Source of the DNA: a virus
Taxonomy: Duplodnaviria; Heunggongvirae; Uroviricota; Caudoviricetes
Strand: one strand, 5' to 3'
DNA: 18,526 bases
Virus record (IMG/VR): IMGVR_UViG_2703718818_000001
Span: 1-18,526 of that record
The notes below the pieces were generated by a model. That model was given only the letters and a program-made list of their open reading frames with translations. It searched no databases and had not been told where the DNA came from. Below are positions 437 to 14,137 of the stretch, piece after piece. The translations under genes were made by a program, and so were the position numbers. The number at the start of each line of letters is the position of its first letter. Within the stretch, counting starts at the first letter, position 1.

Positions 437-650
437 TCCCGGTGAATTCTGCAATGACCAGACAGAATCCGCAACTTGCCTATACAATACGCAACCAAAC
501 ATCTGTCATTATGCCCCTCCGCTCAGGGGGATTCACCATGCCTGTTCCTTTTAACAAACGCCCCGCAAAACAGACAACTGTCAACCGTCTGAATTGTGAG
601 ACATTTAAAATTTTCGGGGCGTAACTGATACCCGGTTAATTCTGCAATAT
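437..650. repeat. Two direct copies of CCCGGT-N-AATTCTGCAAT (437-457 and 631-650) flanking a ~170-bp segment with internal inverted repeats
   Basis: AATTCTGCAAT is identical at 445-455 and 638-648, with CCCGGT upstream of both copies. Inside the flanked segment ACGCCCCG (548-555) pairs with CGGGGCGT (614-621). Confidence 0.4.
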
Positions 651-1708
651 CATCCGTTCTGACTGACTAAATCCTGAACTTCCCTGACAGTCTGCTCAAA
701 ACGTTCAGTCTCCAGCTCAACGCCAGTTGCACGACGTCCCAGCGCCATCGCTGCTTTGACTGTCGAACCCGACCCCATGAAGAAATCTGCAACCAGGTCA
801 CCCGGACGACTGCTCGCGCTGATTATCTGCTGCAGCATTTCTGCTGGTTTTTCGCACGGATGTTTCCCGGGATAGTACTGCACCGGTTTATGCGTCCACA
901 CATCGGTGTACGGCACCTGCGCCGTCACGCCAAAATACCGCCGCAGATACTTATATTCACTCTGCAGTTCCGCATACTGCCGGTTCAGTTCACTGTATGT
1001 GCTGACCAGTTGGTGATGTGGCTTTTCCAGTTCTCCGCGCTGATGCTTCTCTTCTGCCACCCGGGCAAACAGCGCCTGTAATTTCAGATAATCGCTTTCG
1101 TCCGGTAGCTGCCACTGGCTGGCACTGAACCAGTGCGACACCATGTTTTTCTTTCCTGTGGCATCAGCAATCTGTTTTGCCGTTATCCCCAGGGCAGCAC
1201 GCGCATCACGAAAGTAAGCAATCAGCGGAGCCATCACATGCTGTTTCAGTGCCCTGCCCTTCGCCTCATACCCGGCATCTTTCGGACGATACGGCCCCTG
1301 ATAATGTTCCGCGAACAGAATGCGCTCTGTGGCGGGGAAATACGCCCGCAGGCTTTCCTTGTTGCACCCGTTCCAGCGTCCGGACGGCTTTGCCCAGATG
1401 ATATGGTTCAGCACACTGAAGCGTTCACGCATCATGATTTCAATGTCAGACGCCAGGCGATGACCACAGAACAGGTAAAGACTTCCGGCAGGTTTCAGCA
1501 CCCGCCAGAACTGCGCAAGACACTGGTCCAGCCATTTCAGGTAATCCTCATCCCCCGTCCACTGGTTATCCCAGCCCTCGGGCTTCACTTTAAAGTATGG
1601 CGGGTCTGTGACTATCAGATCGACAGAGTTTTCCGGTAAGGTCTGGATAAATTCCAGGCAATCAGCGTTGATTAGCTCACAACTGGATATTTTTACAGTA
1701 TTAGCCAT
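650..1708 (-). CDS. DNA methyltransferase, beta-class amino-methyltransferase (N6-adenine or N4-cytosine); no restriction partner visible (orphan)
   Basis: 352-aa ORF. Motif IV DPPY (LIVTDPPYF) near the N-terminus and motif I FxGxG (DFFMGSGST) near the C-terminus, the circularly permuted order of beta-class MTases. ATG at 1708. Confidence 0.85.
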   Translation of the reverse strand: MANTVKISSCELINADCLEFIQTLPENSVDLIVTDPPYFKVKPEGWDNQWTGDEDYLKWLDQCLAQFWRVLKPAGSLYLFCGHRLASDIEIMMRERFSVLNHIIWAKPSGRWNGCNKESLRAYFPATERILFAEHYQGPYRPKDAGYEAKGRALKQHVMAPLIAYFRDARAALGITAKQIADATGKKNMVSHWFSASQWQLPDESDYLKLQALFARVAEEKHQRGELEKPHHQLVSTYSELNRQYAELQSEYKYLRRYFGVTAQVPYTDVWTHKPVQYYPGKHPCEKPAEMLQQIISASSRPGDLVADFFMGSGSTVKAAMALGRRATGVELETERFEQTVREVQDLVSQNG

Positions 1709-3481: not shown

Positions 3482-4540
3482 TTATGCTTTCCACTTCAGA
3501 ACACCCGAATTTCTCGCGTGCATTAAAAAACGAATCAGCAACAACAGCTGACTGCCGTGTTTCTCTTCAAAATCTTTTACCCCGGCGTGTAGTTCGTTAT
3601 GGCATTTACGGCATAACGGAATAACAAACAAATCGTCAGCCTTTGTTCCCATACCTCCCAGTCCATGACCAATGATGTGATGCGGATCATCTGCCTGATT
3701 GCCACACGTCATGCATTTCTGCGTTTTTACCCAGCGCGTGTATACAGGCATCTCTTCCCGTTGTGGTTTCTGGCGCTGGAGGTACTGAGCCGGAGACTCC
3801 GGATCAACGGCGATGCTTACTAACGTCTTTTCCTGGGGGGGATTTTGTTGCTGGTGGACGTGAAGTGGCAGCGCAATATTTTTTGTGCGCTGCTTCAGTA
3901 TGCTGGTGGCGGCCTGCTCTCCCGGTATGATGTCGCTCTCACGGTATACGGAGCGGATTTTTTCCGCTGGTAATCCCAGCGAACGACGCACTACTGCCTC
4001 AGGTAGTGCATCCACCACCTGATTGCAGACCGCCCACCAGGATAATTCGGCCAGCGATAACTCCCTCTCCTGCGTACTGCTTATTGCGTGACGGATGACG
4101 TCAATCATCCAGGCAACCAGATTCTGCTGAGCAAGTTGATCGAGTGATTCTGATGTCTGGTCGCGCAGCTGGTTGTCACAGTGCCAGCACAACACCATCG
4201 CGCCGGTACCGTAACGGTGAATGACGGTTTCGCTGTGATGATAATCACCGTGTGGCCACTGGCAGGATTTCACGTGACGTAATAACCAGTCAGACAGTGC
4301 ACCTGCACCACCTGCTGCACGAATAACCCGCTCATCGCTGAAAAATGGCAGTAATGTTTTATCCTCTGCCAGCGGCTGGCGAACGGCAGGAACGACTCCG
4401 GACGGCAGACCGCGCATGTTTTTCGGTTCCGGTTCCACCAATATTCTGCCGTTATGGAATGCTGACATTGATTCACGGCCCGGCTTAAGGAGCACCATCC
4501 CGAGTTCCGGTACCAGAACAGGTCGAAGTAATACCCGCAC
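3482..4540 (-). CDS. DUF968-family protein (YdfU-like) with a C-terminal HNH-like metal-binding nuclease motif
   Basis: 352 aa. C-terminal CMTCGNQADDPHHIIGHG...CRKCHNELH is a CxxC...HH...CxxC...H arrangement typical of HNH. GTG start at 4540 with GGAGG 4 nt upstream, abutting the upstream stop. Confidence 0.7.
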   Translation of the reverse strand: MRVLLRPVLVPELGMVLLKPGRESMSAFHNGRILVEPEPKNMRGLPSGVVPAVRQPLAEDKTLLPFFSDERVIRAAGGAGALSDWLLRHVKSCQWPHGDYHHSETVIHRYGTGAMVLCWHCDNQLRDQTSESLDQLAQQNLVAWMIDVIRHAISSTQERELSLAELSWWAVCNQVVDALPEAVVRRSLGLPAEKIRSVYRESDIIPGEQAATSILKQRTKNIALPLHVHQQQNPPQEKTLVSIAVDPESPAQYLQRQKPQREEMPVYTRWVKTQKCMTCGNQADDPHHIIGHGLGGMGTKADDLFVIPLCRKCHNELHAGVKDFEEKHGSQLLLLIRFLMHARNSGVLKWKA

Positions 4541-4541
4541 G

Positions 4542-4820
4542 TTACCTCCAGATGCGCTGCTGGAATGTGCGGGACGGACGCGGTGGGCGTTCGGAATAAG
4601 GGAGCCTGACGGAGATTATCCAGTGACGACGATCGAAGCTGAGATCTTTCTGAAACTCGTAACCACGTCTGCGGTAGCACTGGATCAGCCATTCGGCCTG
4701 TTCTTCAGTGCATGGGTCATGCTGGAACCAGTCAGATTTGAATGCATGAGAACGCCGCCCGTGCCTGCTGGCAGGGGCGGTGGAGTTATCCGAATTGTGT
4801 AATTTGGTATCTTGCGCCAT
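4542..4820 (-). CDS. Hypothetical nin-region protein (92 aa)
   Basis: In-frame ATG at 4820 (the ORF track's longer start is a TTG at 4874). Stop lies 1 nt before the DUF968 start. No family recognised. Confidence 0.4.
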   Translation of the reverse strand: MAQDTKLHNSDNSTAPASRHGRRSHAFKSDWFQHDPCTEEQAEWLIQCYRRRGYEFQKDLSFDRRHWIISVRLPYSERPPRPSRTFQQRIWR

Positions 4821-4889: not shown

Positions 4890-4920
4890 CTGTTGTCGTC
4901 AACAGGCAGCGTGCTATCAT
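4890..4920 (+). promoter_or_regulatory. Candidate parDE promoter/operator: inverted repeat CTGTTG-tcgt-CAACAG overlapping a -35-like element, with TATCAT -10-like hexamer
   Basis: Inverted repeat at 4890-4905; TATCAT at 4915-4920; ParD ATG at 4956. Operator role is inferred from the autoregulation typical of RHH antitoxins. Confidence 0.35.
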
Positions 4921-4955: not shown

Positions 4956-5213
4956 ATGCGTACAACCCAACAATTCAGCATTACATTAACTAACGAGATG
5001 GCTGACATGGTGCGCGCCCGTGTGGCTTCCGGCGCCTATGCTTCAGAAAGCGAGGTCATTCGTGAAGGGCTTCGCGCACTGAATGAGCGCGATAAAGCAA
5101 TCGAAGCGTGGTTAACGCATTCAGCCGCCCCCTCTCTTGATTCTATCCGCGAAAACCCAAACAACGGACGCTCCATTTCACAGGTTCGCGTCGCGATTCG
5201 ATCCGGGAAGTAA
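4956..5213 (+). CDS. parD: Type II antitoxin, ParD/CopG-like ribbon-helix-helix family
   Basis: 85 aa from the ATG at 4956 (GAGG 7 nt upstream); the ORF track start at 4893 is a longer in-frame extension. Translation MRTTQQFSITLTNEMADMVRARVASGAYASESEVIREGLRAL... Stop is 5 nt before the ParE ATG. Confidence 0.75.
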   Translation: MRTTQQFSITLTNEMADMVRARVASGAYASESEVIREGLRALNERDKAIEAWLTHSAAPSLDSIRENPNNGRSISQVRVAIRSGK

Positions 5214-5218
5214 TCTGC

Positions 5219-5518
5219 ATGACATATGAAGTCATCATTACTCCTGAGGCCGAACAACAAATAATCAACCTGCACAGATATATAACGGAGAAAGCAGGGA
5301 ACATCATTGCTGACAATTATGCCAATGCGCTTCTTGATTATCTTGATGGGTTTTCTACATTCCCGCATCGGGGCAATAAACGCGATGATATTCGCCAGGG
5401 GATGCGGGTAACTCATTTCCGCCACAGAACGATTATTGCTTTTGCCGTTGATGGCAGAAAAGTCTTTATTGTCGGTATCTATCATGGTGGGCAAAGTTAT
5501 GAAACCGATTTCTTATAA
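5219..5518 (+). CDS. parE: Type II toxin, ParE/RelE superfamily
   Basis: 99 aa, small basic protein with the ParE/RelE signature pattern (...RVTHFRHRTIIAFAVDGRKVFIVGIYHGGQSY). Tightly coupled downstream of the RHH antitoxin. Confidence 0.8.
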   Translation: MTYEVIITPEAEQQIINLHRYITEKAGNIIADNYANALLDYLDGFSTFPHRGNKRDDIRQGMRVTHFRHRTIIAFAVDGRKVFIVGIYHGGQSYETDFL

Positions 5519-10433: not shown

Positions 10434-10871
10434 TCAATGCACCACAACAGACTCGCCGGATGACCCGCCGTCGCTGAAATACGCTTTCCGGTAAACGGCC
10501 TGGACAGCATCATCATGTGCATCAATTGCCGTGCTCAACGCTTCCTGCGCCGCCAGTAATGCACGGCGCTCAACAGTGTCAAAAATACTGAGGTGATAAC
10601 GCAGTTCACGCGGAAGAACAGTCAGGATAGCCGGAATTAGTGCCTGAATTTTTTCAACAGCATCAGGCGTATCCTTTTCAAGCCAGCGAAAAATATTTTG
10701 TATATTCAATCCAATACCCTCTGTCGTAGAGGTGTCATGCATTGGTGGATAAGTCATTTCAAGCTCAAAATATGCTGTCGCTATATCATCAGCGATTTTT
10801 TTGCGCCCTACCCTCGGATAAAGCAGCCACGCATTCATCGCCATGCGGATGTGCTCATGCTTGATTTTCAT
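10434..10871 (-). CDS. YdaT-like protein (cII-position regulator of Rac-type immunity regions)
   Basis: 145 aa beginning MKIKHEHI, which I recall as typical of YdaT. ATG overlaps the stop of the cro-like gene (ATGA). Confidence 0.65.
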   Translation of the reverse strand: MKIKHEHIRMAMNAWLLYPRVGRKKIADDIATAYFELEMTYPPMHDTSTTEGIGLNIQNIFRWLEKDTPDAVEKIQALIPAILTVLPRELRYHLSIFDTVERRALLAAQEALSTAIDAHDDAVQAVYRKAYFSDGGSSGESVVVH

Positions 10872-11128
10872 GAATCAACTCCCGCCGCTGCTTGTGCGTT
10901 AGCCTGATACTCAACAGGTAAACCATCGGTTGGATTAGGGTATTTATCAGGGCGCAATTCATGCGGAGTTACTCCCCAGTCAAGCGCCTCACATGCTGGT
11001 ATAACCTCCTCCGCTGGCACTCGTTTTTTAAACCACCCACTTATGGTTTGCGGTGTTTTACCAAGACGACGCCCTAATTCTGATTGGCTCATTATTGACA
11101 GGATTTTCACTTGAGTACTTTTTTGCAT
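10868..11128 (-). CDS. Cro/YdaS-like HTH regulator
   Basis: 86 aa with HTH segment SQSELGRRLGKTPQTISGW. ATG at 11128 with GGAGGG 4 nt upstream. Divergent from the repressor gene. Confidence 0.7.
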   Translation of the reverse strand: MQKSTQVKILSIMSQSELGRRLGKTPQTISGWFKKRVPAEEVIPACEALDWGVTPHELRPDKYPNPTDGLPVEYQANAQAAAGVDS

Positions 11129-11254
11129 GTTTCCCTCCGAACTTTACGATGACACCGATGATTACAAATTTAATTTTAAATTTCAACTTCTATTTGTAAT
11201 GCCACTTATCAATTTTTTCTGTAGGATCGCGGAACTAGTTTACGAGGGGTGGTG
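11129..11254. promoter_or_regulatory. Immunity-region divergent promoter/operator region (OR-like)
   Basis: 126-bp AT-rich intergenic region between divergent HTH genes. Inverted half-sites TTACAAAT (11162-11169) and ATTTGTAA (11192-11199); imperfect palindrome AAATTTAA-TT-TTAAATTT (11166-11183). Confidence 0.55.
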
Positions 11255-11647
11255 ATGATCTTTGTAAAACGCCTTCAGCAGGTGTTGCAGGAATTGAATA
11301 TAAACCAGTCAGAGCTGGGAAGACGTCTTGGTGTAAAACCCCAATCCGTGCAAGGTTGGTTGAAAGGCGTGATGCCAAGAATGGATAAACTGGAAAAATT
11401 AGCAGAGCTCTCACAACATCCCGTCCATTGGTTCTTTATGGAAGAAGAAACTCTCGGCGATAAAATGGCTGTATCCAGTAATGACAACCAACCGCAACTT
11501 ACAGAACAACAACGAAAAATCATATCGCTTTTAGATGAGTTACCTCAAAGCGACGCAGAGCAGATCATTCGTGATATGGAGCAAAAACGCGATTTCTATA
11601 AACGGAAACTTGAAGAGTTACTGCGGCAGAAAAACAAAACTGCCTGA
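11255..11647 (+). CDS. CI/RacR-like prophage repressor: HTH protein with no peptidase (S24) domain
   Basis: 130 aa from the ATG at 11255 (GAGGGG 5 nt upstream). HTH segment NQSELGRRLGVKPQSVQGW closely matches the cro-like protein's HTH. C-terminal half is charged and coiled-coil-like, with no Ser-Lys protease motifs. Confidence 0.7.
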   Translation: MIFVKRLQQVLQELNINQSELGRRLGVKPQSVQGWLKGVMPRMDKLEKLAELSQHPVHWFFMEEETLGDKMAVSSNDNQPQLTEQQRKIISLLDELPQSDAEQIIRDMEQKRDFYKRKLEELLRQKNKTA

Positions 11648-11677
11648 TGCATTCCTTTTCTGGAACGAGCATCAGGC
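11630..11677 (-). terminator. Hairpin (GCCTGATGC / GCATCAGGC, 18-nt loop) with a U-rich tail on the minus strand; candidate higBA terminator overlapping the repressor stop codon
   Basis: 9-bp inverted repeat at 11642-11650 and 11669-11677; plus-strand A-rich run at 11630-11641. Confidence 0.35.
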
Positions 11678-11693
11678 AAATGACTAGCAGATT

Positions 11694-12053
11694 TTATAAT
11701 CCAACCAGGCTTTCCAGGGGGATACCAAATTGATTATGAAGACGGCGAATCATTGGTAACGTAAGGCTTCTGGTACCATTCAACACCTCATAAACCCGAT
11801 TTTTTTTCCCAATTGCGGGTTCCAAATCTTTCACAGTCAGCCCCTGCTGTTCCATGCGAAATCTTATAGCTTCAATTGGGGATGGTGGCTCAATGGGATA
11901 ATGTTTTTTTTCATATTCCTCTATTAGCAAACACATCACCTCAAAAAAATCCCCCTCAGGCGTGTCAATTTCGGGCTCATTGTCGAACATGGGTTCAACA
12001 GCACGCAACGCGGCTTCATAATCTTGCTCTGTACGAATAGGTTTGATGTTCAT
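11694..12053 (-). CDS. higA: HigA-like antitoxin (C-terminal XRE-type HTH)
   Basis: 119 aa. C-terminal GLTVKDLEPAIGKKNRVYEVLNGTRSLTLPMIRRLHNQFGIP is an XRE-type HTH. ATG lies 2 nt after the stop of the upstream toxin gene, giving the toxin-first order typical of HigBA. Confidence 0.75.
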   Translation of the reverse strand: MNIKPIRTEQDYEAALRAVEPMFDNEPEIDTPEGDFFEVMCLLIEEYEKKHYPIEPPSPIEAIRFRMEQQGLTVKDLEPAIGKKNRVYEVLNGTRSLTLPMIRRLHNQFGIPLESLVGL

Positions 12054-12055
12054 GC

Positions 12056-12358
12056 TTACTCCAGTTCGATGGTATCAGCATCAATAGCATCGTATTCCTT
12101 GTGGTTTCCGATGAATTTAACAAATACCCATCCTCGCTGATACGCAATTGCAACAATTAAACGGTAATGATTACCTTTTATGTTGAATACCACGCGCCGG
12201 TTTTTCAATATACTGGCCGTTCGGTATTGTGCCTTAATGTCTGCTGGGCTTTTCCAGTCAGCTTTTGCCGCCTCATCCACCCATGCCCTTAGCGGTTGTT
12301 CTGCATCAGGATTCTCCGCCCAAAAATCCCTGAGTGTTTTAACTGAGATAATCTTCAT
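12056..12358 (-). CDS. higB: HigB-like toxin (RelE/ParE superfamily mRNA interferase)
   Basis: 100 aa from the ATG at 12358. C-terminal ...NIKGNHYRLIVAIAYQRGWVFVKFIGNHKEYD matches the HigB pattern as I recall it. The ORF track's 240-aa version (to 12778) is an upstream open-frame extension. Confidence 0.75.
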   Translation of the reverse strand: MKIISVKTLRDFWAENPDAEQPLRAWVDEAAKADWKSPADIKAQYRTASILKNRRVVFNIKGNHYRLIVAIAYQRGWVFVKFIGNHKEYDAIDADTIELE

Positions 12359-12369
12359 AACTGTATAGT

Positions 12370-12386
12370 AGTCCCATTTTGGGACT
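12370..12386. promoter_or_regulatory. Perfect inverted repeat AGTCCCA-TTT-TGGGACT, 12-28 nt upstream of the higB start; candidate HigA operator
   Basis: 7-bp arms at 12370-12376 and 12380-12386. Confidence 0.4.
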
Positions 12387-12401
12387 GATGCAACAGCTCG
12401 C

Positions 12402-12456
12402 AATTGCAAATTTAATAATAAACATGTTGACCAGTTAAATTTTAATTTGTAAATTG
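12402..12456 (+). promoter_or_regulatory. pL-like early-left promoter (TTGACC-17 nt-TAAATT) flanked by operator-like repeats related to those in the cI/cro region
   Basis: -35 at 12427-12432, -10 at 12450-12455. AATTGCAAATTTAAT (12402-12416) differs by one base from ATTACAAATTTAAT in the OR-like region, and ATTTGTAA recurs at 12445-12452. Confidence 0.5.
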
Positions 12457-12632
12457 TATCCATAAACCCACCCCGCCCCACAGAACGCAGGGCAATACTT
12501 CGAGTTACCCGGCAGTGGTCAGGGGTTAAGTAGCCAGCCTGAGGCGTATGAACATGACGGCGGGGATTACGTTTAACTATGCAGCAGGTTTTTTGTTCCG
12601 CTACCCCGGCGTTAAGGGGAAATGAGGTCAAC

Positions 12633-12842: not shown

Positions 12843-13579
12843 AACACGAAAGCGCACGGCGAAGCTCTTTCCCTTAGAAGGCTTGTCGTTAGATTTCTTC
12901 GAACGTGCGCTTCCGGTTGTGGCAATCCGCGAAATGGCGCGGCGGTAAGTATGGCTGGGGTTTCCTCCATTGCTCCAGAAAATGCACCGGGTTGTCAGGT
13001 TGACCATACGATTAAGTGACAGCCCCGCCACAATACCCATGTGTAGTCTTTGGTGGCATCAGTTCTACTCCGTGACTGCTCTGCCACCCTTTTTAAAGTG
13101 AATTTTGTGATGCGGTGAATGCGGCTAAGCGCACGCGGAACAGTTAAAACCGTAAAGTGGTCTTTTACGGGGCGTAACGGGCATACTTCTGTATTCCGGC
13201 GTTAATTGTTAACTGGTTAACGTCACCTGGAGGCACCAGGCACTGCATCGACAAAGTTCACTTCGGTGATGAAAGGTAAGAGAAAATGTTGAATGTAGCT
13301 ATTGAAAACCAGAACGGGTGGAATTATAGTGCACCTGCACCTCATAAAGCGGGTGCCGGGATTGCTACCCCGATGTTCATCATGGCGCATAACCGCGCTC
13401 AGGCGGTTTTTTTATGCGTAATGCACAGCCACATTCAGATTATGGTGGGGCGTGCAGGGCAGCCGCAAGGCTGGCCGGGTTCCATGATGACCGGTTGTAG
13501 CAACCCTGTGCGTCTCACCACCCATGAGATTGCTACCTCCGGTGGTGAGTTAATGAAATTCATCATGGAGGCTGCCATC

Positions 13580-14137
13580 ATGGCTACTATCCCTGCCCTT
13601 TCTCACCCTGAAATTACTATCGCCAATGGGCGTGCTGTTACATCCTCTTTAGCTGTTGCCGAGTATTTCCGGAAACCACACAAAGATGTACTGGCAAAAA
13701 TTTCACGTCTAGACTGTTCAGCAGAATTCACTGAGCGAAATTTTTCGCCCAGTGAATATACCGACTCAACCGGGCGCAAACTCCCTATGTACCAAATCAC
13801 CAAAAACGGCTTCGTTTTCCTGGTGATGGGCTTCACCGGCAAAAAAGCCGCTGCATTTAAAGAAGCCTACATCGCTGAGTTCGATCGCATGGAGAAAGAA
13901 CTGCGCCAGAATAACGCCCCGTCTCCCGACAAAATGATTCACGGGGACGGACGTACCCTGGTTATCCGTCTCGACGAACACGGCAATATCAAATTCACTG
14001 AAACCGTTCCTGATGGTGCAATGGTCTGCACCCTGGATACCTTCCAGTTTTATCTGGAGAAACAAGGCTGGACTCTTGTAAACCGGAGCGCAATTAAAAA
14101 TATGACTGTGGAGCAATTACTAAAAATTCATTGTTGA
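13580..14137 (+). CDS. Rha-family phage regulatory protein
   Basis: Conserved Rha-like N-terminal segment ...SSLAVAEYFRKPHKDVLAKISRL... Preferred start is the ATG at 13580 (GGAGG 8 nt upstream), with 13553 as an alternative. The ORF track's start at 13286 adds an implausible N-terminal extension. Confidence 0.7.
   Translation: MATIPALSHPEITIANGRAVTSSLAVAEYFRKPHKDVLAKISRLDCSAEFTERNFSPSEYTDSTGRKLPMYQITKNGFVFLVMGFTGKKAAAFKEAYIAEFDRMEKELRQNNAPSPDKMIHGDGRTLVIRLDEHGNIKFTETVPDGAMVCTLDTFQFYLEKQGWTLVNRSAIKNMTVEQLLKIHC

Follow-up and report, generated by a model that had tools for sequence, protein, structure and literature searches.

A probable lambdoid immunity cassette with two matching sets of predicted operators in an Escherichia coli prophage

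The window analysed here is a stretch of 18,526 nt that carries a cI-like/cro-like region and is part of a prophage, the rest of which lies outside it. A YdaS-family Cro and a YdaT-family CII are transcribed divergently from the repressor, and the main features are the following:

10434-10871, minus strand: YdaT-family gene (Pfam YdaT_toxin PF06254, E 1.2e-10), functional analogue of lambda cII
10861-10878, unstranded: exact copy of the YdaT operator, TTGATT-N6-AATCAA, at the cro/ydaT junction
10868-11128, minus strand: Cro-like gene of the YdaS family, 86 aa (Pfam YdaS_toxin PF15943, E 1.7e-8; HTH_3)
10980-12452, unstranded: immunity-specific cassette (cro HTH, OR, cI, higBA, OL/pL), delimited by blastn against the heteroimmune prophage L023
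11255-11647, plus strand: cI-like repressor of the DicA/Gifsy type, 130 aa, ATG at 11255
11694-12358, minus strand: higA (11694-12053) and higB (12056-12358), Pfam HTH_3 and HigB_toxin, PGAP names in L001
12427-12455, plus strand: pL-like promoter, TTGACC-17-TAAATT, sigma-70-like, from the promoter scan
13302-14137, plus strand: candidate antirepressor module, consisting of a promoter (TTGAAA-17-TATAGT), an IsrK sRNA, a C4-type antisense RNA/orf45-like leader and a Rha-family ORF (13553-14137)

The YdaT-family protein matches the CP-933P YdaT structure (PDB 8bt1, E 5e-29) and PDB 3c4r (E 2e-30). The motif and position of the YdaT operator were set by footprinting in CP-933P (PMC9986795), and its copy at 10861-10878, which has 0 mismatches and is the sole match in the window at up to 2 mismatches, is probably a pRE-type control site. 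Together, the YdaT homology and the exact operator link this region to the CP-933P switch, which has been dissected by experiment (PMC8630535, PMC9986795). The higBA pair, in which the gene for the RelE-like toxin HigB (PF09907, E 5e-33) lies upstream of that for the HTH antitoxin HigA (HTH_3 at residues 63-115), is a toxin-antitoxin moron, an insertion that separates cI from OL; it is absent from the Arsenophonus relatives. The first-pass annotation of this DNA did not mention it. Beyond the pL-like promoter, which stands where dicBp does in Qin, follow ydfA-like, DicF, dicB, recE, xis and int.

The cI-like protein had been described earlier as a 130-aa repressor without an S24 peptidase-like C-terminus, and this is what the domain searches return: only HTH_3 (E 6.3e-9) and HTH_26 are found by Pfam, with neither a peptidase nor a different sensor domain, and no peptidase family, Peptidase_S24 included, is matched in Pfam, NCBIfam or PHROGs. 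The sequence also contains no Ala-Gly or Cys-Gly dipeptide. The AlphaFold model, for whose alignment DicA was left out, is all-helical, with an HTH domain (residues 1-61, pLDDT above 90), a disordered linker (62-83) and a helical hairpin (84-128), so that only 46 ordered residues, all helical, follow the linker. Foldseek matches of the model include P22 c2 (rmsd 1.1-1.2 Å), 434 Cro (~2.0 Å) and SinR of Bacillus subtilis, whose HTH is among the best structural matches. SinR, too, consists of an HTH and a small C-terminal helical domain, there bound by its antagonist SinI, and the resemblance may be taken as a lead on architecture; SinR does not belong to a phage system, and no sequence relationship is detectable in the C-terminal part. 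Compared with PDB sequences both singly and as a profile, the protein matched HTH domains alone, with the C-terminal hairpin unmatched.

Full-length homology is to DicA and the Gifsy repressors. Residues 3-129 correspond to positions 6-132 of the 135 in NCBIfam NF007257, the DicA model (E 2.7e-13), and since its 49.9 bits fall below the 101-bit cutoff the protein lies outside the DicA subfamily proper. It is 30% identical to GtgR across 127 aa, and tblastn finds it related to Gifsy-1/-2 at E 8e-10. The closest relatives are switches of the DicA/Gifsy/CP-933P type, and the Rac-type likeness proposed from the first reading does not apply specifically. There is no BLAST match between the cI-like protein and the PaaR-like repressor of strain IBS28; the latter, linked to paaA2, is a different, heteroimmune protein and was rejected as a stand-in for PaaR2. 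The absence of a Pfam peptidase, the all-helical model and the full-length homology to DicA and GtgR all support the earlier proposal that the repressor is not self-cleaving and would be non-cleavable; as it lacks a protease domain, RecA should therefore be unable to inactivate it directly. The near identity claimed for the recognition segments of the cI-like and cro-like proteins is also real (12 of 17 residues, and 58% over 26 residues), and the recognition helices of both proteins, like the Cro-like HTH as a whole, are conserved in the same relatives as OR.

What, then, could release such a repressor? Derepression would most likely require a repressor-binding protein (an antirepressor) or a spontaneous Cro-driven flip. 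The homologues GtgR/GfoR and DicA are relieved by antirepressors (PMC3121763, PMC10448788), in the case of DicA by Rem (PMC10448788), and such proteins are able to act in trans from other prophages (PMC3121763). The first-pass annotation suggested a search for a LexA-controlled antirepressor, and within the window none was found: tblastn for GftA, Rem, DinI and IrsA gave no meaningful E-value, and the LexA matrix placed no credible box beside any candidate antirepressor. An exact CTGT-N8-ACAG at 4890-4905 shares bases with a -35-like TTGACG that precedes a 92-aa ORF, and was rejected as marking a LexA-controlled antirepressor: it scores under 8 bits with the LexA matrix, matches to the loose pattern occur at chance level, and the ORF does not resemble Rem and is a member of PHROG 1212 (function unassigned in PHROG).

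The module at 13302-14137 offers a different candidate. Its promoter matches at 10 of 12 positions in the promoter scan, Rfam identifies isrK (64.7 bits) and C4 (77.9 bits), and at 76% identity the leader resembles the Gifsy-1 isrK-orf45 region, a locus that controls an antirepressor-like protein (PMC4825925). The ORF behind this RNA gate, 0.9 kb downstream of pL, hits Pfam Phage_pRha and PHROG anti-repressor families, which makes the isrK/C4-RNA-controlled Rha gene a candidate antirepressor by homology. That induction actually proceeds through the RNA gate and not through SOS, with the IsrK/C4 leader controlling translation of a Rha-family antirepressor of the 130-aa CI, we consider unlikely. 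If it did, a stress-responsive small RNA would time the release of the early-left operon (DicF, DicB, RecE, Xis, Int), and on related stx2b-carrying backbones the same sRNA would time late and toxin genes.

There may also be no dedicated antirepressor, with release left to a host protease, to thermal or chemical instability or to stochastic takeover by Cro, or with the prophage cryptic and non-inducible. The lack of a GftA or Rem homologue in the window fits this, as do several observations on related switches: Qin dicBp is derepressed by urea and switches spontaneously, independently of Rem and RecA (PMC10448788), DicA instability has been reported with urea and temperature, and PaaR2 of CP-933P is unresponsive to mitomycin C (PMC8630535). 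However, the homologous repressors do answer to antirepressors, which can work in trans, and an anti-repressor-like gene lies under RNA control a short way beyond pL. Release without a dedicated antirepressor is a reasonable possibility, if less likely than not.

The sites on which repressor and Cro are predicted to act lie in two clusters, and the right-hand one occupies the divergent intergenic region:

11158-11186, minus strand: pR-like promoter, -35 TTGAAA (11186-11181), 17-bp spacer with TG, -10 AATCAT (11163-11158), from the promoter scan
11161-11181, unstranded: OR1, dyad ATTACAA-N7-TTTAAAT, covering the pR -10 and spacer and including 11161-11174
11180-11200, unstranded: OR2, dyad ATTTCAA-N7-TTGTAAT, over the pR -35, abutting the pRM -35 and including 11192-11199
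11199-11227, plus strand: pRM-like promoter, weak -35 ATGCCA, 17-bp spacer, -10 TAGGAT, read by eye
11205-11225, unstranded: OR3, weak in the window, CTTATCA-N7-CTGTAGG over the pRM spacer and -10

Three 21-bp dyads with the consensus ATTRCAR-N7-YTGYAAT make up the 65 bp of OR, a block that relatives in Salmonella, Sodalis, Serratia and Arsenophonus have preserved in both length and sequence. Across six lineages the block aligns without gaps at a mean pairwise identity of 75%, against 33-37% in its flanks. A half-site matrix built from the non-E. coli relatives alone and scored on all window positions ranks OR2 first (18.3) and OR1 second (15.6). Both halves of OR1 are conserved in the six lineages, and in the relatives from Sodalis and Serratia the 7+7 bases of OR2 form a perfect palindrome. 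The window has a poor OR3, with 4-5 of 7 consensus positions in each half; all relatives share its position and 21-bp length, and its palindrome is clear in Sodalis (GTTACAA-N7-CTGTAGA) as well as in Serratia (GTTACAG-N7-CTGTAGA). The -35 and spacer of pR are conserved in all relatives, and we infer promoter function from this anatomy. The pRM-like promoter, absent from the promoter-scan output, is followed by a leader of about 20 nt with the Shine-Dalgarno sequence GAGGGG; TTCTGTAG(G/A/T)AT is conserved at pRM in the E. coli, Salmonella, Sodalis and Serratia relatives, in place of which those from Arsenophonus have TTTTGTATGCT. OR2 is centred ~44 bp ahead of the predicted start of pRM, a lambda-like placement that is presumably close to that of lambda OR2 at -42.

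The left-hand cluster surrounds the pL-like promoter:

12403-12423, unstranded: OL2, ATTGCAA-N7-AATAAAC upstream of the pL -35, with the outer half alone strong, corresponding to the site reported earlier at 12402-12416
12433-12453, unstranded: OL1, AGTTAAA-N7-TTGTAAA over the pL spacer and -10, corresponding to the site reported earlier at 12445-12452

OL2 shares 16 of 21 bases with OR1, and OL1 shares 17 of 21 with the reverse complement of OR1. Other E. coli variants have ATTACAA in place of ATTGCAA at OL2, and the converse swap occurs at OR1 in variant L018. The pL-like promoter is the sole window match to the pL of the relatives, with substitutions at 3 of 29 positions; pL was not located in two Salmonella loci (L010 and L014) at the threshold used. 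OL2 is conserved upstream of pL in Arsenophonus, and the stretch equivalent to OL1 is conserved in Arsenophonus, Sodalis and Serratia. As dyads the left sites are weak: OL1 scores only 7.0 (rank 9) with the matrix from other species, and OL2 has one recognisable half. For OL, 21 bp may not be the right unit. Folding of the pL leader RNA (12462-12600) is no better than that of shuffles (z = 0.73).

The first-pass annotation based its OR/OL reading on words common to both clusters, and a string check of the window finds every one of them where it was reported. ATTACAAATTTAAT (11161-11174) and AATTGCAAATTTAAT (12402-12416) differ by one base over their common 14, and ATTTGTAA occurs at both 11192-11199 and 12445-12452. 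The inverted TTRCAAAT pairs described at two loci are likewise there, and the 4 occurrences in 18.5 kb, counting either strand, all fall at these sites, in two inverted pairs that surround the pR-like and pL-like promoters. It is the unit that needs revision: in place of half-sites 31-42 bp apart, the working operator is more likely a 21-bp dyad, with three such dyads at OR, and there are weak inner half-sites.

Could the shared words be no more than a chance or low-complexity likeness of AT-rich promoters, or a trace of shared promoter ancestry, with no operator role? Both intergenic regions are 63-64% A+T, TTRCAAAT is not enriched (4 observed vs 2.7 expected, a number unremarkable by itself), the dyad scores of OL1 and OL2 are modest, and pR and pL have spacer sequence in common, so that part of the similarity between OR1 and OL1 could reflect common ancestry of the two promoters and not operator function. 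The arrangement of the sites, unlike their count, is unusual. When the two intergenic regions are dinucleotide-shuffled 2000 times, 2.3% of trials give a common word of at least 10 bases, 1.4% give a common inverted 8-mer pair, and just 0.15% give the two features together. Conservation, as seen in the cross-genus alignment of OR against its diverged flanks, is stronger evidence for operators than these shuffle statistics.

A further argument against mere likeness comes from heteroimmune prophages. In blastn against the E. coli prophage L023, homology is lost after 10979, within the Cro-like gene, of which the C-terminal part alone is common to the two, and comes back at 12453; both operator sets therefore lie at the ends of one exchangeable immunity cassette, in agreement with the earlier OR/OL assignment. 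Exactly these stretches are swapped for another repeat at both loci, L023 carrying its own AATAGCA at its OR and at its OL. Three heteroimmune modules, namely this one, that of Qin DicA and the PaaR-like module of IBS28, each have their own repeat at OR and pL, and all three stand upstream of a common ydfA gene; only IBS28 also has the pL leader in common with this module, and its own module served to map the cassette boundaries. An origin of the words in base composition or promoter ancestry alone is thus very improbable, and the OR/OL interpretation of the two clusters is supported by comparative sequence evidence.

The left cluster might instead hold HigA operators of the higBA promoter, its likeness to the cI/cro intergenic region being incidental. 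HigA is an HTH protein, and higB starts at 12358 on the minus strand, so its promoter must be within ~100 bp of the left sites. All 148 complete E. coli genomes with this cI also carry higBA, so E. coli data alone cannot separate the two. The sequence upstream of higB contains

12365-12393, minus strand: probable higBA promoter, TTGCAT-17-TACTAT, read from the sequence
12371-12385, unstranded: palindrome GTCCCAttttGGGAC in the spacer of that promoter, likely the HigA operator

and GTCCCAttttGGGAC, which the E. coli variants retain (L018 with one mismatch), is unrelated to ATTRCAA. HigA as the binder of 12402-12456 is hardly credible and was rejected: the left sites resemble OR and not the palindrome in the best higBA promoter candidate, the HigA HTH has no similarity to CI or Cro (E above 4), and in Arsenophonus and Phlomobacter the same promoter and sites follow 94-109 bp after cI, with no gene between and no space for higBA. 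The left sites are found over a sigma-70-like promoter directly 3' of cI in relatives whose repressor is ~50% identical, as expected of OL.

Taken together, 10980-12452 probably serves as immunity cassette to an E. coli lambdoid prophage that is of the DicA/Gifsy/CP-933P type, with predicted operators: an uncharacterised immunity region of a well-known kind, with a repressor, a Cro partner and two matching operator sets. Its anatomy suggests how binding, activation and cooperativity may be organised. The CI-like and Cro-like proteins would compete for the same operators, 21-bp dyads of ATTRCAR heptamers. OR1 covers the -10 of pR, and repressor bound at OR2 would probably silence pR and boost its own promoter, pRM, while OR3, over pRM, is likely the first target of Cro. 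The two OL sites, with their strong outer halves flanking pL, would keep the early-left operon (ydfA, DicF, dicB, recE, xis, int) silent. Centre-to-centre spacing is 19 bp within the OR pair and 30 bp within the OL pair, a difference of one helical turn that would fit pairwise cooperative binding, and the C-terminal hairpin on its flexible linker probably serves oligomerisation.

A lambda-like layout is evident in the divergent pR/pRM with three operators, in the second set at pL, here ~1.2 kb away, and in the accessory module between cI and OL (rexAB in lambda, higBA here). The OR-OL distance in lambda is 2.3 kb. Unlike lambda, the switch has a repressor without the S24 self-cleavage domain, dyads of 21 bp, only two recognisable OL sites and an all-helical Cro of the YdaS type. 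The Gifsy-1/-2/-3 repressors of Salmonella (GfoR, GtgR and GfhR) are full-length homologues with 30-32% identity, also short and without a cleavage site, and also set in a lambdoid immunity region with recE-type early-left genes; however, their dinI-antirepressor-irsA operon and LexA box are absent from this window, and their Cro and CII partners are of another type.

DicA of Qin (E. coli K-12, 135 aa) is likewise a short repressor with an HTH and a C-terminal helical region, divergent from a cro-like gene, and the motif L..L..LP.S(E/D)...EELL is common to the C-termini of both proteins; in Qin, too, one repeat stands between the divergent genes and returns in the ydfA-DicF-dicB promoter, where it separates the -35 (TTGACC) from the -10. 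In contrast, identity to DicA is only 22%, the operator word there is of the TGTTAG type and not ATTRCAA, the Cro partner is DicC and not YdaS-like, and higBA is inserted only here.

The PaaR2-YdaS-YdaT switch of CP-933P/Sp12 (E. coli O157:H7) also combines a non-cleavable CI analogue with a YdaS Cro and a YdaT CII, and has TTGATT-N6-AATCAA at the ydaS/ydaT junction. Footprints of both regulators were obtained on its OR repeats, and past a toxin-antitoxin pair in the rexAB position come pL and a second operator set (PMC8630535); as sequence anatomy, repeats common to OR and to OL/pL past such a module are present and conserved here. The operator word there is GTTTAGTAA, however, and higBA here is transcribed apart from cI, on the other strand and from a promoter of its own. 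The PaaR2 mRNA is leaderless, unlike that predicted here for cI with its GAGGGG leader.

The immunity biology would follow the paradigms established for Qin, Gifsy and CP-933P, and the switch is of interest since it controls the cell-division inhibitors DicF and DicB. The operators and the predicted RecA-resistant repressor indicate which signals can and cannot wake the prophage, and the comparative operator model pinpoints the exact bases for mutation. A DNA search of a collection of sequenced phage isolates gave no match to the immunity type. Among complete E. coli genomes it is present in 148 of 5426, enterohaemorrhagic O26, O103 and O111 strains among them, and the nin/Q backbone of the prophage is common to a Stx2b-converting prophage.

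The first-pass annotation had proposed that inverted TT(A/G)CAAAT half-sites at the cI/cro region and at a pL-like promoter form right and left operators (OR and OL), and all the strings it quoted were found where it had placed them. Counting both strands, the window has just four copies of TTRCAAAT, at 11162, 11192, 12404 and 12445, which make up the two inverted pairs. The count itself is unremarkable (2.7 expected) but the arrangement is not, since a shared word and a shared inverted pair appeared together in only 0.15% of shuffles of the two intergenic regions with dinucleotide content preserved (a word of at least 10 bases in 2.3%, an inverted 8-mer pair in 1.4%).

Repressor homologues with 47-76% identity are found in Salmonella, Sodalis, Serratia, Arsenophonus and Phlomobacter. 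We retrieved the surrounding DNA and compared the cro-cI intergenic regions of six lineages, all of which contain a fixed-length 65-bp block with 75% mean pairwise identity, as against 33-37% in the directly flanking intergenic DNA. The block consists of three 21-bp dyads of the form ATTRCAR-N7-YTGYAAT, and each of the two OR half-sites noted earlier corresponds to the strong outer half of a dyad, one in OR1 and the other in OR2. When a half-site matrix built from the non-E. coli relatives only was used to scan the whole window, OR2 came first of all positions (18.3) and OR1 second (15.6), with the next at 10.7. Helix 2-helix 3 of the repressor (QSEL.RR..VKPQSVQ.W) is near-invariant among homologues and the Cro-like HTH in their loci is also kept (QSELGR..GK.PQTI..WF); in the window the recognition segments of the two proteins are indeed similar, with HTH segments 58% identical over 26 residues.

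Predicted operators and promoters of the switch
11161-11181, OR1, 21-bp dyad
11180-11200, OR2, perfect 7+7 palindrome in Sodalis and Serratia
11205-11225, OR3, weak in the window, clear palindrome in Sodalis and Serratia
11186-11158, minus strand, pR-like promoter, TTGAAA-17-AATCAT with extended TG, conserved in all relatives
11199-11204 (poor -35, ATGCCA, abutting OR2) and 11222-11227 (-10, TAGGAT), plus strand, pRM-like promoter
12403-12423, OL2, 16/21 identical to OR1
12427-12455, plus strand, pL-like promoter, TTGACC-17-TAAATT
12433-12453, OL1, 17/21 identical to the reverse complement of OR1

OR1 covers the -10 and OR2 the -35 of the pR-like promoter, while a conserved TTCTGTAG(G/A/T)AT on the plus strand supplies the pRM-like -10. 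Since the pRM -35 abuts OR2, the OR2 centre lies ~44 bp upstream of the predicted pRM start, close to the arrangement in lambda pRM, where OR2 is at -42, and we infer that repressor bound at OR2 would activate pRM. Unlike both lambda cI and paaR2, the cI-like gene is preceded by a short leader with a Shine-Dalgarno sequence, GAGGGG.

On the left, the Arsenophonus and Phlomobacter loci have the same pL-like promoter; ATTACAAAT precedes it and TTTAATTTGTA extends into its -10. Because pL follows the cI stop at 94-109 bp in these loci, 201 bp in Sodalis, 759 bp in Serratia and 780 bp in E. coli, the left-hand sites travel with cI and pL and not with the intervening DNA. The OL sites are weak as 21-bp dyads in the matrix scan (OL1 ranks 9 and OL2 has one good half only), so the size of the OL unit is uncertain. 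At position 4 of the heptamer, A and G replace each other among natural variants of OR1 and of OL2, in keeping with the R of the consensus. Centres are 19 bp apart for OR1-OR2 and 30 bp for OL2-OL1, a difference of one helical turn.

Relatives carry varied insertions between cI and pL, which makes this interval a cargo hotspot. The window has a HigB/HigA pair there, missing from the first-pass annotation, in the place of lambda rexAB and CP-933P paaA2-parE2.

Cargo of the cI-pL interval
E. coli: 11694-12358, minus strand, HigB/HigA toxin-antitoxin pair between cI and OL
E. coli: 12393-12365, minus strand, best higBA promoter candidate, TTGCAT-17-TACTAT
Salmonella Javiana: L010 4454-4645, PaaA2-family antitoxin
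S. diarizonae: L014 4506-5780, PLD-domain protein
Serratia: L016 4414-5038, two small ORFs
Arsenophonus: nothing

The spacer of the candidate higBA promoter contains a palindrome, GTCCCAttttGGGAC, unrelated to ATTRCAA. The predicted start of this promoter is the A of the higB ATG (12358), with no Shine-Dalgarno sequence upstream, which suggests a leaderless higB mRNA. Among complete E. coli genomes, cI with OR always co-occurs with higBA (148 genomes each), and a short-query search found OL in 136 of the 148; since cI and higBA are always together, E. coli data alone could not separate the modules.

The strongest computational argument for a likely operator identity of both clusters is their co-variation with the repressor. 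A heteroimmune E. coli prophage of strain IBS28 (L023) matches the window in the replication genes, in YdaT and in the C-terminal third of Cro, and again all the way from the pL -10 onward. The match ends at 10979 and restarts at 12453; the segment exchanged between these points encodes another repressor and has a repeat of its own, AATAGCA, in OR as well as in OL. The cryptic prophage Qin shares the ydfA ribosome-binding region with the window and likewise carries TGTTAG-type sites at two places: in the spacer that separates dicC from dicA, and within dicBp, between its -10 and its -35 (TTGACC here too). Both site clusters thus lie at opposite ends of a single exchangeable immunity cassette. 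The sequence observation holds, and the proposal that the sites are probable OR and OL operators is supported, refined by the 21-bp dyads, the pL conserved in relatives and the co-varying sites.

From the pL -10 to ydfA runs a leader (12456-12632) that heteroimmune E. coli prophages conserve to a high degree (L023 3069-3250) and that is partly kept in Arsenophonus (L005 about 4005-4060; CAACNCAC..CA.AACGCA.GGCAA...CGAGTTA). It showed no unusual RNA folding (z = 0.73), ends in GCAGCAGG and a T run just before ydfA, and may be a nut-like or attenuator element.

The 130-aa repressor does lack an S24 peptidase: its Pfam matches are to HTH families only, and no peptidase domain was found in Pfam, NCBIfam or PHROGs. 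In an AlphaFold model, residues 1-61 form a confidently predicted HTH domain of five helices, 62-83 a disordered linker and 84-128 a helix-turn-long-helix hairpin; in structure it is nearest to P22 c2, 434 Cro and repressor, and SinR, and no solved structure was found for the C-terminal part. DicA aligns over the full length (22% identity) with a C-terminal motif in common, and the NCBIfam DicA model matches with E 2.7e-13, a score under its cutoff. Full-length alignment extends to the Gifsy-2 repressor GtgR, which is 30% identical across 127 residues (tblastn E 8e-10), and more weakly to RacR. Gifsy repressors, with which DicA and RacR have been grouped, are not cleaved but stripped from DNA by small LexA-controlled antirepressors (Lemire et al., PMC3121763), and Rem antagonises DicA (Ragunathan and Vanderpool, PMC10448788). 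The missing peptidase domain and the full-length homology to DicA and GtgR argue that the repressor is not self-cleaving, as had been proposed.

The same layout exists for PaaR2/YdaS/YdaT in CP-933P, with a non-cleavable repressor, OR, and OL and pL on the far side of a toxin-antitoxin pair, and both regulators were footprinted there (Jurenas et al., PMC8630535). The window switch is an uncharacterised immunity specificity within this well-described class. The YdaT of CP-933P, which has been crystallised, is a homologue of the one in the window, and the footprinted YdaT operator, TTGATT-N6-AATCAA, has one exact copy in the window (10861-10878, TTGATTTTCATGAATCAA), spanning the cro stop and ydaT start, which suggests that repressor synthesis is established from a pRE-type promoter.

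How would such a repressor be removed? The window has no homologues of GftA, DinI, IrsA or Rem, and a candidate antirepressor source lies downstream of DicF.

Candidate antirepressor module and Rfam matches above the gathering score
362-570, STnc100
13038-13089, DicF
13302-14137, candidate module: strong promoter, IsrK sRNA, C4-type antisense RNA/orf45-like leader, Rha-family ORF
13337-13413, isrK
13438-13525, C4 antisense RNA

The C4/orf45-like leader is 76% identical to that of Gifsy-1, where this RNA leader controls whether the antirepressor-like AnrP is translated (PMC4825925). The Rha-family ORF matches several PHROG anti-repressor families, and its protein is weakly similar to AnrP, in the C-terminal part only. 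The ORF at 13286-14137 (283 aa) overlaps the isrK and C4 RNAs, matches Pfam Phage_ASH over residues 1-109 and is probably an orf45-like leader peptide fused to the Rha protein, a fusion noted for Shigella in the IsrK paper. Antirepressors can also act from other prophages (PMC3121763), and Qin derepression is possible without Rem or RecA (PMC10448788). A perfect CTGT-N8-ACAG at 4890 is not credible as a LexA box. A strong LexA-box candidate, AACTGGATATTTTTACAGTA at 1681-1700, scored 23.2 bits (best of 200 shuffles, 18.1) against a matrix of known SOS boxes; it falls within the DNA methyltransferase ORF (650-1708, minus strand), at codons 4-10, downstream of Q, and is also present in the near-identical E. 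coli locus (L001).

Overall, the 18.5 kb of the window make up the early and regulatory half of a lambdoid prophage of E. coli, whose integrase adjoins yccA in L001.

Gene order, low to high coordinates on the minus strand
Minus strand: DNA methyltransferase, Q, rusA, DUF968 gene, nin-region genes, P, DnaT-like replication gene, YdaT-family gene, YdaS-family cro-like gene
Plus strand: cI-like, ydfA-like, DicF, Rha gene, dicB, recE-like exonuclease, xis, int

The nin region contains a ParD/ParE toxin-antitoxin pair (4956-5518, plus strand), divergent from a 92-aa ORF (4542-4820, minus strand) of the function-unknown family PHROG 1212, which sits roughly at the position of rem in Qin yet is unrelated to Rem. 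Compared with the Stx2b-converting prophage of strain 2012EL-2448, a 1664-bp piece (L021 36941-38604) with three tRNA genes and stx2b A and B is absent from the window, which has 37 bp instead (600-636), with ~97% identity on both sides. The window is a stx-negative counterpart of this Stx2b backbone; the Cro-like and YdaT accessions in 2012EL-2448 differ from those of L001.
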